Below, piece after piece: positions 8,783 through 60,633 of a stretch of DNA of 64,000 nt. This stretch comes from Bacillota bacterium (GTDB taxonomy: Bacteria; Bacillota; Clostridia; TANB77; CAG-508). Position 1 is the first letter of the stretch. Each line of letters begins with the position of its first letter. The stretch spans positions 226,705 to 290,704 of the forward strand of contig CAWVJY010000008.1 of assembly GCA_963929915.1 (NCBI GenBank), read 5' to 3'. Made by a program: the position numbers and the translations under genes. Under the pieces are notes generated by a model. That model did no database searches, was not told where the DNA came from, and saw only the letters and a program-made list of their open reading frames with translations.

Positions 8783-8827
8783 AATGATTAGTTATAAAAA
8801 ATAAAATTGCTGAAAGGTAGTAATTAT

Positions 8828-10262
8828 ATGCAAAATAAAAACATAAAAACAGTTGCTTTTTACACATTAGGTTGTAAAGTAAATCAATACGAAACAAATG
8901 CAATGATGCAAAAATTAAAAGAAGTAGGATTCGAAATAGTAGATTTTGAACGAAAAGCAGATATCTATATTATTAATACTTGTACTGTAACTAACATGGC
9001 AGATAAAAAATCTAGGCAAATGTTAAGAAGAGTAAAAGAAGTATCACCAAATTCTATTTTAGTTGCAGTAGGTTGTTATGCACAAGTGGCAAAACAAGAA
9101 TTAGAAAAAATACCAGAAATAGATTTAATATTAGGAATTAATGAAAAAAATGATATTGTGTGGTATGTAGAAAAAGCAATACAAGAAAAGACGAGCAAAA
9201 AAGAGAAAAAAATTGAAAGAGAAAAAGAAAATGAAACAAATAAAATAACTAGCAAAAAAAGCATAGATAACAAGGATTCTAGCTCTAGTCAGAAAAGTAA
9301 AATTGATATTGTAAATGTTTCCAATGTAGCAAACCAAAAAGAGTTTCTAGACTTTGGAAATGTTACCTACACAGAAAAAACAAGAGCAGTCATCAAAGTA
9401 CAAGATGGGTGTAACCAGTTCTGTTCCTATTGCATTATACCTTATGCCAGAGGTCGTATTAGAAGTAGAGAGCCACAAAGTGTTATTCAAGAAATTACTG
9501 CAATTAGCAAACAAGGTATTAAAGAAGTAGTTATTACTGGAATTCACTTAGCCTCTTATGGAAAAGATTTTGACCGGAGAACGACAAGAATATAGATTAA
9601 TTGATTTATTAGAAGAAATCCAAAAAATAGATGGAATTGAAAGAATTCGTTTGGGTTCCTTAGAGCCTACGTTAATTACAGAAGAATTTGTAACAAGACT
9701 TTCCAAACTTTCTAAAATCTGTGACCATTTTCATTTATCTTTACAAAGTGGATGTAATGAAACATTAAAAAGAATGAATCGAAAATATACTACTGAAATT
9801 TTTGAAAAAGGAGTAGAGATTTTAAGAAACACATATCCAAATGTACACTTAACAACAGATATTATTGTAGGCTTTCCAGGAGAAACAGAAGAAGAGTTTC
9901 AAACAACTTATGAATTCCTAAAGAAAATACAGTTCTATAAAATGCATGTTTTTAAATATTCTCCAAGAAAAGGAACAGTAGCTGCAAAAATGCCAAACCA
10001 AATAGATGGCAATAAAAAAGAAGAAAGAAGCAATTTACTAATAGAACTTTCAAACAAAAATGAACTTGCCTATAACCAAGAATATTTAGGCAAAATAGTA
10101 GAGGTTTTGTTGGAAGATAGAGAAGGTAAATACATAAAAGGTCATACCACAAATTACATGGTAGTAAAAGTACAAACAGAACAAGAACTAGAAAATACCA
10201 TACAAAATATAAAAATTACAGGTTTGGATGGAGTAGAACTAGTTGGAAGAATTGAATTATAA
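8828..10262 (+). CDS. mtaB: tRNA methylthiotransferase MtaB-like (radical SAM), reading frame broken near 9577
   Basis: TVAFYTLGCKVNQYETNAM (MTTase N-domain), the radical-SAM CNQFCSYCIIPYARG, and a TRAM-like C-terminus. The two track ORFs (8807-9595, 9558-10262) are consecutive parts of one protein. Confidence 0.85.
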
Positions 10263-38114: not shown

Positions 38115-39065
38115 ATGGCAAAGAACCCAATGCAAAGAAAAGCTCAAAATTCATTTCTTTTAGGAATGTTAATCACATTATTAATAACAGGAATTATTAT
38201 TGCTGTTTTAGTAATACAACTTACTAAAATAACAAGAGAACAAAATGAGGCAAAAGCAAATTTAAAACAGGTTTATGTATTAACACAAGATGTTAATTCA
38301 GGAGATACTGTTACTACCGATATATTAACATTACAAGCAATGGACGCAAGTACTATTCCATCCAATGCACTAAGTTTAGCAGAACTAACTGCTAAAAGCG
38401 ATATTGTAGACGAAAATGGTAATCTTATTCAAAAAATGAATGTTGTTAGTAAAATAGATTTGAAACAAGGAACAATTATTACTTCTGATATGATTGCAGT
38501 ACAAGATGAATTAGCAGCAGATTTAAGAAAAGTAGAATATAATATGATTGTTCTTCCAACACAGTTACAAGATGGCAAATATATTGATATTCGTTTAAAA
38601 TTACCAACAGGAGAGGATTTTATTGTAATTTCCCATAAACAAGTAGAAATTCCTACTGTTGAAGGAATAGATTCTTTAAATAGTATTTGGTTAAACTTAG
38701 ATGAAACAGAAATTTTAACTTTAAGTTGTGCTATTGTAGAATCTTATCAAATTCAAGGTTCTCTACTATATATAACTGAATATGTGGAACCAGGCTTACA
38801 AGAAGCAGCTACTGCAACTTATTTACCAAACGATTCAACTATTAATTTAATTAACCGTGATCCTAACTGTGTAGCAGAAGCTAAAAATGCATTATTTGAA
38901 AGAAATAATAATCAGAGCACTAAAAATTCAGTTAGAAATCCTGTTAATAATAATTTAAATAATAATGCAGAAGATGCAATTGATAATGTTATTGACAATG
39001 TAGAAGAAGAAATTAGAAAAACGCAAGAAGAAAGACAAACTTATTTAGAGTCGTTAGGTGGATAA
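38115..39065 (+). CDS. CpaB/RcpC-like Flp/Tad pilus assembly protein (TM helix plus SAF-like domain)
   Basis: A basic N-terminus plus a TM helix, then VYVLTQDVNSGDTVTTDIL (SAF-type strand pattern). First gene of the operon, with SD AAGGAGG. Confidence 0.65.
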   Translation: MAKNPMQRKAQNSFLLGMLITLLITGIIIAVLVIQLTKITREQNEAKANLKQVYVLTQDVNSGDTVTTDILTLQAMDASTIPSNALSLAELTAKSDIVDENGNLIQKMNVVSKIDLKQGTIITSDMIAVQDELAADLRKVEYNMIVLPTQLQDGKYIDIRLKLPTGEDFIVISHKQVEIPTVEGIDSLNSIWLNLDETEILTLSCAIVESYQIQGSLLYITEYVEPGLQEAATATYLPNDSTINLINRDPNCVAEAKNALFERNNNQSTKNSVRNPVNNNLNNNAEDAIDNVIDNVEEEIRKTQEERQTYLESLGG

Positions 39066-39135
39066 TAGAAAAGTAAAAATATGATAATTTAGAAAATTAA
39101 TCTTAAAAAATAGAAAAAAGTAATAGGAGGAAAGC

Positions 39136-39837
39136 ATGAAAACGGTAGGATTTATAGGGGCATATGATAAAACAGATTTGATTGTTTATATAGCAAGAAT
39201 TCTAGTGGTATTAGGAAAAAAAGTTTTGGTAATAGATGCTACTACTTTACAAAAAGCAAAATATATAGTACCTGCTATTTCTCCTGCTAAATCCTATATT
39301 ACTGATTTTGAAGGTATTGATATTGCAGCAGGATTATATAATTTTACCTCAATTAAAGAATATTTAGGGATGCCTTTACATGCAGCTTTTGAATATGATT
39401 ATATTTTTATTGATGCAGATTCATCAGAAGTGATTGAAAGTTTTAATTTACAAACTGCAAACCAAAATTATTTTGTAACGGCTTTTGATGCTTATTCTTT
39501 AAAAAGAGGATTAGAAATTTTATCTGGAATAGCAGAACCAATGAAACTAAAAAAAATACTATTTTCCAAAAATTGTACTGTAGAAGAAGATGAATATCTA
39601 AATTATTTATCATTAGGCTATAAAATTATATGGGATGAAGAAAAAATTTATTTTCCATTTGAATCAGGAGACCAAACAGTTATTATGGAAAATCAAAGAG
39701 TCGCCAAAATTAAATTGAAAAAGTTATCAGAACTCTATAAAACTAGCTTGATGTATGTTGCAGAAGAATTATTAGATAATGAAAAAGAAAGTGCAAATTT
39801 AAAAAAGGCATTTAAACAATTAGAAAAAGGGGTATAA
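39136..39837 (+). CDS. ParA/MinD-fold protein with a degenerate Walker A (TadZ/CpaE-like)
   Basis: MKTVGFIGAYDKTDLIVYIARILVVLGKKVLVIDAT aligns to the ParA/MinD N-terminus, but GAYDKTD replaces KGGxGKT. Confidence 0.6.
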   Translation: MKTVGFIGAYDKTDLIVYIARILVVLGKKVLVIDATTLQKAKYIVPAISPAKSYITDFEGIDIAAGLYNFTSIKEYLGMPLHAAFEYDYIFIDADSSEVIESFNLQTANQNYFVTAFDAYSLKRGLEILSGIAEPMKLKKILFSKNCTVEEDEYLNYLSLGYKIIWDEEKIYFPFESGDQTVIMENQRVAKIKLKKLSELYKTSLMYVAEELLDNEKESANLKKAFKQLEKGV

Positions 39838-39842
39838 AGTTC

Positions 39843-40688
39843 ATGGCAATAATTACATTTTGTAGTAATGAAACTAAAGAAACAGGACAAACCTTATCTT
39901 TAGCGGCAATTGCTTCTTTTATGGCAATTGAGCATAATTATAAAATTCTAGTAGTATCCACAAATTTTAATGATTTGAGCTTAGAAAATTGCTTTTGGGA
40001 ATATAACAAAATAAGGCCATCTGGAGCAATTAAAATAGATGGACAAAAAAATGTGGGGCTAGAATCTGGAATAGAAGGATTAATTAAAGTCTTAAATAGT
40101 AATAGAACTAGTACTGAAATTGTAAAAAACTATTCTAGAATTGTATTAAGAGATAGATTAGACGTTTTTTTATCACCTATTACAAAATCTTATCAAGAAT
40201 ATACACAAATTACACCATATTATACAAACATTCTTCAAATTGCTAATAGGTATTATGACTTGATATTTGTAGACTTAAGCAAAAAAATGCCTAAACAAGA
40301 TGCAAATGACATTTTACAATTATCTGATATTGTTGTGGTAAACCTTACTCAAAGATTAAAAACAATAAATGATTTTATGCAATTAAGAGAATCTAACGAA
40401 TTTTATCAAAGAAAAAATGTAATGCTTGCTATAGGAAGATTTGATAAATTTTCTAAATATAATAGCAAAAATATTACTAGATATTTAAAAGAAAAGAAAT
40501 TAATTTCTGTAATTCCTTATAATACATTATTTTTTGAAGCTTGCTCAGAAGGAACCATTATTGACTTTTTACTAAAAGTAAAGAACATTACAGATGAAAC
40601 AGACCGTAATAGTAGTTTTATAAAAGAAATTCAAGCAATAGATAATAGTATTATTTTTAAATTACAGGAACTACAAATGAAAATGTAA
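39843..40688 (+). CDS. Second ParA/MinD-fold protein with a degenerate Walker A (TadZ/CpaE-like)
   Basis: MAIITFCSNETKETGQTLSLAAIASFMAIEHNYKILVVSTN has the same fold pattern, with SNETKETGQT in place of the P-loop. Confidence 0.55.
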   Translation: MAIITFCSNETKETGQTLSLAAIASFMAIEHNYKILVVSTNFNDLSLENCFWEYNKIRPSGAIKIDGQKNVGLESGIEGLIKVLNSNRTSTEIVKNYSRIVLRDRLDVFLSPITKSYQEYTQITPYYTNILQIANRYYDLIFVDLSKKMPKQDANDILQLSDIVVVNLTQRLKTINDFMQLRESNEFYQRKNVMLAIGRFDKFSKYNSKNITRYLKEKKLISVIPYNTLFFEACSEGTIIDFLLKVKNITDETDRNSSFIKEIQAIDNSIIFKLQELQMKM

Positions 40689-40715
40689 TCCTATTAGAAA
40701 GGAGACTTTAAAAAG

Positions 40716-57175: not shown

Positions 57176-58567
57176 ATGAACAAAAGTAGTAAAAACGTTG
57201 AAGTTTTAGAGAGAGAGAGAGAGTTACACTTTAAGCAAATAAAGGAGAAAAGAGGTATCACCCTTATTGCATTGGTTGTAACCATAGTGGTTTTGTTAAT
57301 TTTAGCAGGAATCACAATCAATATGTTATTTGGAAGTGATGGAATATTTAAAGTAGCAGAAGATGCAGGAGATGCATGGAATGAAGCAACAGTAAATGAG
57401 CAAGAAAGTTTAGACAACATAGCAGACCAAATAGCAAATTTAGTAAATGGACAAGCAGGAGGAGATGCAGGAACAGAAGAACCAGAAGAACCATGGATAC
57501 CACCAACAACAATAGAAGAAGCAATAGAACAAGATAAAATATTTGAAGAAACAAAACAAATAAAAGATAATTATAATAATACCGTAACTGTACCAAAAGG
57601 ATTTAAGGTAACAGAAGATGCTACAACAGTACCAGAAGGAATCGTAATAGAAGACGGAACAGGAACAGAAACAACTACAGGAAACCAATTTGTATGGATA
57701 CCAGTAGGAACCGTACATAAAGATAGTAATCCAGAAAATGATGTAACAATAAAACTAGGAAGATATACATTTGATACAACAGATGGAACACCAACAATGC
57801 AACAGGCAGCATTTGAAGGAGATAATGAAAATGATCCTAGTCAAACTTATGCATCAGATCCACCAGTTACTATAAATTCATATTATAGAGAATTAACAAC
57901 ATATAGAGAAGGAATAGCATCAGATGGAAGAAAAGGCTTAAATGCAACAGCTAAAAACTTAGCAGGCTTCGTTCAAAGTATAGCAAATAATGGAGGTTAT
58001 TACATAGCAAGATATGAGGCAAGCTATGGAAGTGGAAGTAGTACATCAGATTGGAAGCCATTATCAAAAGTATCCACAGGAACACCAAGAGGAGAAGACC
58101 AAGATAGTACACCATTAACACAAGGAATGCTATGGAACCATGTAACACAATTAGAAGCCTCAAAAATATGCCAGAATATGTATCAGGAAGGAGATACAAC
58201 AGTAGGAGTAGAAAGTGATTTAGTAAATAGTTATGCATGGGATACAGCAATCGTGTTTATCCAAAGCATGGATGAAGCAAATAGTAATTATGCAAATGCA
58301 AATAGAAATACAACAGGAAATAGAGTTTTAAAGAATACAGGAGAAACAGGAGATGAAGTATGTAACATATTTGATATGGCAGCAAATATAAAAGAATGGA
58401 CCACAGAATATTCCACGTACAAGCCTAACAGTGGTGCGGGCCCTTGCGTTGGCAGAGGAGGCATTTACAACGAATACGGCAGCGACTACACTGCTAACAG
58501 GAGCACGTATTATGCGATCACCAGCCGCCTCGATATCAGCTTTCGAGAGGTGCTTTATGTAAAGTAA
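57176..58567 (+). CDS. Type-IV-pilin-like protein with an FGE-sulfatase/C-type-lectin-like C-terminal domain
   Basis: Prepilin-type N-terminus KRG-ITLIALVVTIVVLLILAGI. FGE/SUMF1-like landmarks: GGYYIARYEAS, LWNHVTQLEASKIC, NSYAWDTAI, DMAANIKEWT, GRGG, ISFR. Confidence 0.75.
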   Translation: MNKSSKNVEVLERERELHFKQIKEKRGITLIALVVTIVVLLILAGITINMLFGSDGIFKVAEDAGDAWNEATVNEQESLDNIADQIANLVNGQAGGDAGTEEPEEPWIPPTTIEEAIEQDKIFEETKQIKDNYNNTVTVPKGFKVTEDATTVPEGIVIEDGTGTETTTGNQFVWIPVGTVHKDSNPENDVTIKLGRYTFDTTDGTPTMQQAAFEGDNENDPSQTYASDPPVTINSYYRELTTYREGIASDGRKGLNATAKNLAGFVQSIANNGGYYIARYEASYGSGSSTSDWKPLSKVSTGTPRGEDQDSTPLTQGMLWNHVTQLEASKICQNMYQEGDTTVGVESDLVNSYAWDTAIVFIQSMDEANSNYANANRNTTGNRVLKNTGETGDEVCNIFDMAANIKEWTTEYSTYKPNSGAGPCVGRGGIYNEYGSDYTANRSTYYAITSRLDISFREVLYVK

Positions 58568-58630
58568 CACTGACCACTGGTAGTGGTAACTAGTTTTAAG
58601 AAGAAAAATACAAAAAAGTCAGCAAAACTG

Positions 58631-58659
58631 TTGACTTTTTTGCATTCTCATTATATAAT
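58631..58659 (+). promoter_or_regulatory. Putative promoter of the S10 operon
   Basis: TTGACT at 58631-58636, a 17-nt spacer, then TATAAT at 58654-58659. Confidence 0.65.
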
Positions 58660-58672
58660 AATAAAGCATGTA

Positions 58673-58870
58673 TTTGGCGATGAAGTAAGATGTGGCTACA
58701 AATGTAGTAATTAAGCTCATTTGGAGGGAACTCTTATGGAGTATGTCGTGGCTTAGACCAGGCGGTAAGTTAAAAACAAAAAGCACTTATCCCAAGAATT
58801 ATCATGCGAGCTTGGGTTTTTATATTGGTAAACAACGAAACACCAGGGTGCGTTATAACTTCCGACCAAA
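58673..58870 (+). ncRNA. Candidate structured 5' leader of the S10 ribosomal-protein operon
   Basis: The closing helix TTTGGCG-at-GAAGT (58673-58686) / ACTTC-CG-a-CCAAA (58858-70) encloses about 170 nt. Inside are the sub-hairpins CTAC-AAAT-GTAG, ACTC-TTATG-GAGT, GGTAAGT...ACTTATCC and the pairing AAGCTC...GAGCTT. It is visibly GC-richer than neighbouring intergenic DNA. Confidence 0.4.
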
Positions 58871-58916
58871 ATAAAGGCAAAAAAGCCTAGAAAATTTAGA
58901 AGGAGGGAATTTTAAA

Positions 58917-59247
58917 ATGGCAACAAAGAAAGAAAACGCAGTAACAAGTGAAAAAATCAGAATAAGACTAAAAGCTTATGATCATGTTGTTTAGAACAGT
59001 CTGCTGAAAAAATAGTAGATACTGCTAAAAAAACAGGAGCTAAAGTATCAGGTCATATTCCATTACCAACAGAAAAGGAGATTATTACTATTTTACGTTC
59101 TCCACACAAACACAAAGATTCTAGAGAACAATTTGAAATGAGAACACATAAAAGAGTAATCGACATTCTTTATCCAACACAAAAAACAGTAGACAATTTA
59201 ATGAAAATTGATTTGCCGGCTGTGTAGATATTGAAATCAAATTATAA
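58917..59247 (+). CDS. rpsJ: 30S ribosomal protein S10 (frame broken by indels as written)
   Basis: [23 protein letters not shown], then shifted pieces ...[20 protein letters not shown]...[35 protein letters not shown]. There are missing bases at gttgttTag and ccggctGtgta. Confidence 0.85.
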
Positions 59248-59369
59248 TGTCAAAAGAATAATTTGTATTAGATAAAAAAGGAAGATGTATCCTTAAATAC
59301 ATCAAAACCATGCTAATTAATATTTAATATACAAATCAATTAATTAGCCAATAGTTAGGAGGAAATAAA

Positions 59370-59990
59370 ATGAATAAAGGATTAATAGGAAAAAAAGTAG
59401 GAATGACTCAATTCTTGATGAACAAGGAAAAGTAATTCCAGTAAACCGTTATTGAAGCAGGTCCATGTACTGTTGTACAAGTAAAAACAGTAGAAAATGA
59501 TGGATACCAAGCAATTCAATTAGGATTTGGAGAAGTAAAAGAACATAAAGTTAGCAAACCAGTAAAAGGTCATTATACAAAAGTAAACTTAACTCCAAAA
59601 AAACATTAAGAGAATTTAGAGTAGATTCTTTAGAAAATGTAAAAGTAGGAGACGAATTAAAAGCAGATATTTTTAGTTGCAGGAGAAAAGTTAGATATTC
59701 AAGGAACTTCAAAAGGAAAAGGATTCCAAGGTGTTATTAAACGTCATGGACAATCTAGAGGACCAATGGACATGGTTCTATGTATCATAGAAGACCAGGT
59801 TTCAATGGGACCAACTTCTACTCCAGGTAGAGTTTTCAAAGGTAAAAAACTACCAGGACATATGGGTAACCAAACCATTACTATCCAAAACTTAGAAGTT
59901 ATAAAAGTAGATTTAGATAAAAATGTTATTTTAGTAAAAGGTAGTGTACCAGGAGCAAAAGGTGCTATCTTAAAATTAAAAACAGTGTAA
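59370..59990 (+). CDS. rplC: 50S ribosomal protein L3 (multiple indels as written)
   Basis: [14 protein letters not shown]...; later pieces [10 protein letters not shown] and [22 protein letters not shown] (ORF 59766-59990). Confidence 0.85.
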
Positions 59991-60013
59991 AAGTAAATAA
60001 GGAGGAAAGACAA

Positions 60014-60632
<619 letters not shown>

Positions 60633-60633
<1 letters not shown>

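Follow-up and report, generated by a model that had tools for sequence, protein, structure and literature searches.

A probable diversity-generating retroelement variable repeat, most likely no longer rewritten, at the 3' end of a solitary pilin-like gene in a Clostridia genome

The stretch of DNA analysed here (the window) comprises 64,000 nucleotides of contig CAWVJY010000008.1 (positions 226,705 to 290,704, forward strand) from the Clostridia assembly GCA_963929915.1. At 57176–58567 on the plus strand it carries a gene for a 463-residue pilin-like protein with a C-terminal domain of the FGE/C-type-lectin fold which, judging from its open reading frame (ORF) and its homologues, belongs to a family of targets of diversity-generating retroelements (DGRs). 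We conclude, with a probability of roughly 0.9, that the tail of this gene is by descent a DGR variable repeat (VR). The copy in the window is probably a former remote target, most likely no longer rewritten and with its specificity fixed. That the tail is a DGR variable region had been proposed from the sequence alone, and this is borne out by genuine template repeats (TRs), accompanied by MutS-like (MSL), Avd and reverse transcriptase (RT) genes, that match the scaffold of the tail, and by close homologues that are actively diversified cis targets. The VR, taken as the stretch homologous to a TR, spans 58406–58554 on the plus strand on the basis of blastn with the TR of locus L017, a base-by-base comparison and the enrichment of NNC codons, and its presumed formerly mutagenised core extends from about 58418 to 58537 on the same strand. 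It is placed at the 3' end of the ORF and within the C-type-lectin/FGE-type fold.

The tail stands out in base composition. G+C accounts for 62 of 120 nucleotides at 58441–58560 and 14 of 60 at 57541–57600, exactly as had been counted before, and amounts to 34.4% in the gene body (57176–58400) and 50% at 58400–58567, with 29.4% for the whole window. Codons ending in C make up 14 of the 24 between RGG and ISFR versus 31 of the first 407 codons of the gene (Fisher p = 2e-9), or 16 of 26 once the ATC AGC of ISFR is included. The enrichment described in the sequence-only reading therefore stands, but its figure of 17 of 27 does not, and the codon list given with it was partly misread; the codons in this interval run ATT TAC AAC GAA TAC GGC AGC GAC TAC ACT GCT AAC and then AGG AGC ACG TAT TAT GCG ATC ACC AGC CGC CTC GAT. 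An inverted repeat had also been reported at the end of the gene. Its arms, CCTCGA (58528–58533) and TCGAGAGG (58543–58550), are present, but pairing between them is limited to five base pairs (CTCGA/TCGAG), and as they lie inside variable codons and have no counterpart in the paralogues we regard the repeat as a chance occurrence and not as a conserved feature.

The family to which the protein belongs is large, with more than 7800 homologue clusters at E<=1e-3 and thousands of clusters at 90% identity in each of two subfamilies. Homologues with 50–75% identity have the scaffold EWTTEYST.T.SS.A.PC..RGG.Y..S..YTA.R....AT.S....GFR..LY.K in common, interrupted by free positions. Across 93 unique tails, 21 columns have an entropy above 2.5 bits and are occupied mainly by Y, S, N, D, G and F. 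The residues K, E, Q, M and W, which were counted because no substitution at the first two bases of an AAY codon yields them, make up 3.7% of the hypervariable columns versus 19% of the protein body. At the DNA level the differences between paralogues fall at codon positions 1 and 2, and the third position stays C or T. Among the homologues listed, P0022, P0025, P0030 and P0032, and likewise P0003 with P0011, form pairs whose tails are only 61–71% identical and whose last 250 body residues are 100% identical.

A TR was inferred from two paralogues on one contig (P0007 at locus L001 and P0021 at locus L012) by setting A wherever the two differ, and the resulting pattern, AGGAAYAAYAAYAATGCGACC, was used to scan genomes, one per species. 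Three of the five matches (L014, L015 and L017, all in metagenome-assembled genomes of 'uncultured Clostridium sp.') are true TRs, non-coding, AAC-rich and reading STNTNSSNANPCTNRGGNYNNSNNYTANRNNNNATNSNNNIGFRVAL*, and the remaining two (L016 and L018) were dismissed as chance matches. Just upstream of the L017 TR lie genes for a MutS_I-like protein (E = 2e-7), bAvd (3e-18) and an RT (1e-17) with the motifs IGNYTSQ and YLDD. A search for RT homologues led to the loci L019–L021, where the gene for a 409-residue target homologue (34% identity to the protein of the window) precedes MutS_I, bAvd, RT and TR; the L019 TR and the VR of its gene differ by 30 mismatches, 28 of them at adenines. The genes for P0022 and P0032, which are 67–68% identical to the window protein, are located immediately upstream of an MSL-Avd-RT-TR cassette whose TR is identical to that of L017. 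These two alleles differ at 34 of 1320 nucleotides, and 33 of the differences lie 33–150 nucleotides from the stop codon, inside the VR; relative to the TR, one allele has 19 mismatches at adenines and four elsewhere, the other 26 and two. With all but one of the allelic differences in the VR, and with mismatches to the TR mostly at adenines, the sequences indicate that this is a genuine and currently working DGR target family.

Two further features of these cassettes were observed. At L014 (799–4568) the RT beside an intact TR is reduced to its C-terminal 152 residues, and three consecutive genes for tyrosine recombinases (a recombinase-in-trio element) accompany it. L014 thus appears to be a naturally disrupted DGR, and since its RT has been cut down, loss of DGR elements does happen in this clade. 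In addition, every cassette seen contains a conserved ORF of 87–112 residues directly after the TR (L015 6711–7049, L019 11409–11672, L034 13857–14195 and L014 171–452). Among the copies scanned, that of L015 alone gave a weak match to an SSB/OB fold (E = 7e-5, below the cut-off), and the ORF may represent an unrecognised DGR accessory gene.

When three real TRs were compared with the window by blastn, the VR alone was matched. For the TR shared by L017 and L034 the sole match covers 58410–58525 with 74% identity over 116 nucleotides (E = 8e-16). Base by base, the window VR and this TR, which is that of another species and the closest one found, differ by 47 mismatches, 30 of them at adenines of the TR and 17 at other bases, and by a three-nucleotide insertion that adds a GAA codon. 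Cognate TR-VR pairs, by comparison, have 19–28 mismatches at adenine sites and 2–4 at others, and the paralogues at L001 and L012 depart from this TR at 8 and 10 non-adenine positions, almost all of them 3' of the likely integration boundary. Most of the non-adenine changes in the core of the window VR are from GC to AT (ACG>AAG, AGC>AAC, ACT>GTT, AAC>TAT, ACC>ATC, AAC>GAT and GGT>AGC), which is what mutation pressure in a genome of 29% G+C would be expected to do to a VR that is not refreshed. The window VR is not the most decayed member of the family: that of P0041, found in identical form in 36 contigs, carries 33 non-adenine mismatches. P0041 was recovered from the same two samples as P0022 and P0032, the variable cis targets, with coverage that matches theirs, and it probably shares a genome with them.

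The window gene is solitary, flanked by spoVG and murC on one side and by the S10 operon on the other. As the sequence-only reading had stated, the 64 kb contain no TR, Avd or RT: an adenine-tolerant sliding search of both strands for a TR gave at best 40–47% identity, tblastn with the MSL, Avd and RT proteins of two related DGRs gave no match better than E = 0.14, and the blastn comparison described above agrees. The protein P0001 is identical to that of the window and P0121–P0124 are its orthologues. P0121, P0007 and P0021 are encoded on a single contig of 433,730 nucleotides (at about 335–357, 277–298 and 75–97 kb, respectively), and no RT was found within 10 kb of these three loci. Other paralogues are just as solitary, and five paralogue loci inspected all lacked an RT within 10 kb. 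A metagenome scan for the cognate TR with the pattern TTTCGAGNGGTRCTCTAATA returned only two chance matches (L023 and L024), and among the best 120 homologues neither an RT nor a cis target is on a contig with the length of one of this genome's contigs (874,129, 433,730 or 296,644 nucleotides). Viral contigs gave no match to the TR pattern or to the patterns of the VR flanks, and for this reason a phage origin was rejected.

Between the window and its orthologues P0121, P0123 and P0124 the tails are 88–98% identical and the bodies 97–99.5%, the tail of P0121 differing from that of the window at one residue and those of P0123 and P0124 at seven. Hypervariability among strains with an otherwise constant gene, as seen in the cis-target homologues, is not observed at this locus. 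The contig L022 was sampled independently. It too carries the GAA insertion, it agrees with the window in 14 of the 17 non-adenine mismatches, and it retains C where the window has T in two codons (TAC/TAT and GAC/GAT). Because homing would have reset the shared insertion and the shared non-adenine changes, it appears that none has taken place since the strains diverged. The sequence-only reading had held that an identical tail in orthologues, together with the lack of any TR or RT in the genome and of VR heterogeneity in reads, would reduce the GC-rich region to a recombined or horizontally acquired domain end; L022 does have largely the same tail, but the data point instead to a DGR product that now appears fixed.

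The stop codon of the window gene is followed by a conserved flank of 42 nucleotides (58568–58609, plus strand), which recurs in L001, L012, L002 and L022 and contains CACTGNN-CACTGGT-AGTGG. The small hairpin previously noted in it, CCACT-GGT-AGTGG at 58574–58586, is present and extends to six base pairs at 58573–58587 (ACCACT-GGT-AGTGGT). This is the best hairpin of the flank, with a GGT loop and a predicted DNA stability of −4.5 kcal/mol; the active cis target has an even weaker version of it. The canonical DGR cruciform has a GC-rich stem of 7–10 base pairs and a GRNA loop; given the short, AT-rich stem, the different loop and the weaker form in the active cis target, we do not assign the hairpin to that class. 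It is also unlikely to be a terminator, as the real one, recognised in a consensus scan by a stem of 14 pairs followed by a T run, lies at 58611–58642 on the plus strand.

The steps that could have led to the present state are as follows. In these gut Clostridia a chromosomal cassette, made up of the target gene, a MutS-like gene, Avd, RT and TR, reverse-transcribes the AAC-rich template, and a copy with randomised adenines is written into the neighbouring target gene at its 3' end. The gene in the window is a solitary paralogue of such a target. It lies just before the S10 ribosomal operon, a long way from any cassette, and its VR, which takes up roughly the last 50 codons, still has the scaffold that goes back to a TR, as well as the NNC codons and the conserved flank on the 3' side. 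Since then this VR has gained non-adenine changes, mostly from GC to AT, and the three-nucleotide insertion, and most of these are found in the orthologue as well. Most likely it is now fixed and evolves by ordinary mutation, possibly with selection acting on the old variable positions.

Several observations weigh against the view that the window copy has ceased to be rewritten. Its flank is identical at 39 of 42 positions (93%) to that of the active cis target in L034–L036 (L034 11321–11362), although the proteins are only 67% identical and the genomic contexts are unrelated, and with the flank so nearly intact there is nothing visible that would prevent recognition by a DGR. The divergence between the window and L022 is 9.5% in the tail (13 of 137 nucleotides) versus 1.7% in the body, or about five- to sixfold; of the 12 differences that precede the stop codon, 8 fall at presumed adenine sites, among them two double changes (AAC/TCC and ACC/GTC). 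This could be due to residual DGR activity rather than to selection. The count of non-adenine mismatches is less certain than it looks because it was made against the TR of another species, and if the genome's own TR carried those bases and the extra codon the VR would look much fresher. Finally, all contigs with P0121 belong to one series of similar ENA accessions and bear differing names of assembler style; they may therefore not be independent, and truly independent orthologues are few (P0123 and P0124). Taken together, these points leave some room for the alternative that the VR is a currently active remote target, rarely rewritten by a DGR with its own TR variant elsewhere in the genome. 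Remote targets more than 100 kb from the RT have been documented for cellular DGRs (PMC5758913), the VRs of the paralogues L001 and L012 in the orthologue's genome depart from the known TR at only one to three non-adenine positions of the core, an indication that a DGR has acted recently in the lineage, and, since RT-bearing contigs are typically only 1–4 kb long, the cassette could easily be missing from the bin. However, homing resets all non-adenine positions to the TR and randomises the adenine sites anew, and orthologues that have diverged by about 2% still have the insertion, 14 of the 17 non-adenine mismatches and most of the variable codons in common, whereas cis targets in otherwise identical genes differ at 33 VR positions. 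That none of the best 120 RT homologues is on a contig with a length matching this genome's points the same way. We consider continued rewriting possible but the less likely state.

Two explanations that do without a retroelement acting on this copy were also considered. Gene conversion or recombination among paralogues, combined with selection, might keep the tail variable, and indeed the differences between the window and L022 are clustered in the body as well (58103–58105, 58139–58140 and 58185–58188), as is typical of mosaic exchange, in a lineage with at least three paralogues in one genome. Such exchange leaves the origin of the NNC codons and the match to the TR unexplained, at its altered codons the L022 tail agrees with neither L001 nor L012, and we think it improbable except as a secondary process. 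Still harder to sustain is the fallback, a domain end that came by horizontal transfer or recombination and never had a DGR acting on it. The abrupt change in composition and the lack of a TR or RT in 64 kb would agree with it, but the real TR of a related DGR aligns to exactly this stretch, the family carries the signature of adenine mutagenesis, and among close homologues there are cis targets whose mismatches are limited to adenines; these results contradict it, and we give it almost no weight.

The gene has a second potential source of variation. An (AG)8 tract in the part coding for the leader (57208–57223, plus strand), the window's only dinucleotide run of at least seven units, is a candidate site of slipped-strand phase variation. 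In the independent orthologue L022 the tract is (AG)9, which breaks the frame, and the gene is called from Met 50 without the pilin-like N-terminus; P0124 likewise starts at Met 50 and P0014 is one Arg-Glu pair shorter. These differences in length look like slipped-strand phase variation as read from the sequences. Solitary paralogues also recur beside highly expressed housekeeping genes, namely the S10 operon (window 57176), rpsO-pnp, aspS, the vicinity of rpmE and the position after rpsF-ssb-rpsR, the loci outside the window being L026 10001, L025 6059, L012 10001 and L002 10001. It is conceivable, though we hold the idea more loosely than that of rare rewriting, that this is a two-tier system, in which one evolving copy next to the DGR coexists with archived, phase-variable solitary copies that carry a portable, non-canonical recognition flank of 42 nucleotides. 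If so, the remote copies would be switched by (AG)n and would be either rarely rewritten in trans or a frozen repertoire of fixed specificities.

The pilin-like character assigned earlier to the N-terminus is weakly marked in the window protein and clearer in its family. Pfam matches PF07963 (N_methyl) at residues 25–47 with E = 0.016 and 15.2 bits, below the cut-off of 21.2, and has no match for FGE-sulfatase on the protein itself; among 56 aligned family members N_methyl is found in 44 (best E = 1e-4) and FGE-sulfatase in 27 (best E = 1.5e-8). Sequence searches of the PDB gave weak, non-significant matches for the pilin N-terminus (E of about 0.1–0.8) and weak ones for FGE. The N-terminus, KRG|ITLIALVVTIVVLLILAG, resembles a class III signal, and the prepilin-like signal together with the hydrophobic helix, KRG|ITLIALVVTIVVLLILAGITINMLF, occupies 57248–57325 on the plus strand. 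Pilins usually have Glu at mature position +5, although some minor pilins also lack it; in the window protein this residue is Ala (G|ITLIALVV). Two sister proteins are annotated 'pseudopilin PulG' by JGI, and a Peptidase_A24 gene is present on a contig of the orthologue's genome (L001). The window protein may be presented on a pilus-like filament. Its extracellular region, residues 120–463 (57533–58564, plus strand), is predicted to consist of an N-terminal beta domain followed by the FGE/C-type-lectin-like domain, with the VR on the last strands. A full-length structure model built from 56 sequences was set aside, as its predicted local distance difference test (pLDDT) score was 59 for the whole chain and under 50 in most of the C-terminal part, and a second model, based on a deeper domain alignment, was used in its place.

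A cluster resembling those of Tad/Flp-type pili lies elsewhere in the window (38115–50869) and comprises ten consecutive ORFs without Pfam matches. It includes a CpaB-like protein, two ParA/TadZ-like ATPases, a membrane platform of 696 residues and four small pilin-like proteins beginning MENASKALI, and its CpaF-like ATPase is split in two at 41842–41888. The cluster resembles a locus described in the uncultured order TANB77 (PMC11680825), and the likeness is limited to this neighbouring cluster. A link between the target family and the TANB77 'pilin 938' was considered and rejected, as those pilins have 143–236 residues and are a different type of protein.

The cassettes of the relatives are of the MSL type (architecture D of Wu et al. 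2018, PMC5758913; for example Legionella and Msl-carrying Bacteroides). They share with it the MutS_I-like protein, bAvd, the RT motifs IGNYTSQ and YLDD, the AAC-rich TR, differences confined to adenines and a VR at the C-terminus of an FGE/C-type-lectin domain. They differ from it in the order target-MSL-avd-RT-TR, in the small SSB-like ORF after the TR and in the type-IV-pilin-like N-terminus of the target; the window, moreover, has no part of a cassette. TvpA of Treponema denticola is a lipoprotein whose DGR uses HRDC (PMC5758913), unlike the pilin-like anchor and the MSL and Avd found here, and in comparison with TvpA and its remote targets the window copy appears decayed and not cleanly adenine-only relative to the TR. 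Sequence identity to Thermus aquaticus TaqVP and to Bordetella phage Mtd is 11–14%; Mtd is a phage tail-fibre protein, whereas the DGR here is cellular. The closest parallel in setting is provided by the tip adhesins of Bacteroides type V pili (bioRxiv 10.1101/2024.11.15.621889), where a gut DGR is also aimed at the ligand-binding end of a pilus-associated protein and some of the DGRs also carry Msl. Those are type V pili of Bacteroidota, whereas the protein described here is of the type IV (class III signal) kind and from Clostridia, and that preprint mentions neither type IV pili nor Firmicutes. PilB of Streptococcus sanguinis (PMC8179133), in our reading of its architecture, similarly couples an N-terminal pilin module with an adhesive module that is large and globular. 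It is not a DGR system, and the window protein differs in having Ala at the usual Glu 5 position and a filament assembly that is only predicted.

The mechanism, the cassette architecture, the fold and the existence of remote targets are already known, and the novelty is modest: the anchor is of the pilin type, the family is very large, and copies in active, fresh and decaying states occur side by side. DGRs are, to our knowledge, the only prokaryotic system for targeted hypermutation of proteins, and they are densest in the gut. The present family indicates that their targets in low-GC gut Clostridia include pilin-like surface proteins, a type of anchor barely mentioned in the DGR surveys consulted. 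A single genome that holds scattered copies in different states, DGR-adjacent and rewritten, remote and fresh, or remote and decaying, offers a natural series in which to ask what makes a VR recognisable in trans, how long it stays a target and whether fixed VRs are retained as useful specificities. The VR was recognisable from the sequence alone, and its TR could be predicted from paralogues well enough to be retrieved from public genomes.

Downstream of the gene, the promoter of the S10 operon (58631–58659; TTGACT-17-TATAAT by consensus scan) overlaps the terminator. A weak match to the S10-Clostridia ribosomal-protein leader at 58672–58768 (20.5 bits versus a gathering score of 35.1, E = 0.068) sits between the terminator of the target gene and rpsJ, a plausible position, and its score may have been depressed by indel errors. 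Compared with the short-read orthologous contig L022, the window has about 50 single-base indels in 58790–64000, which break rpsJ, rplC, rplD, rplB and other essential genes; the same genes are broken in the long-read contigs L028–L031. The regions 8807–10262 and 40716–42699 are affected likewise, with miaB and the pilus ATPase split. These indels most likely reflect errors of long-read assembly or polishing and not pseudogenisation, and the sequence of the VR itself is corroborated by other assemblies. At the other end of the window, 1611–2666 encodes an IS30-like transposase of 351 residues (HTH_38 and rve domains), and in the orthologue's genome two further genes of this length and domain content are found close to the P0007 paralogue (L001 2811–3866 and 6950–8005), which suggests that it belongs to a multicopy insertion sequence.

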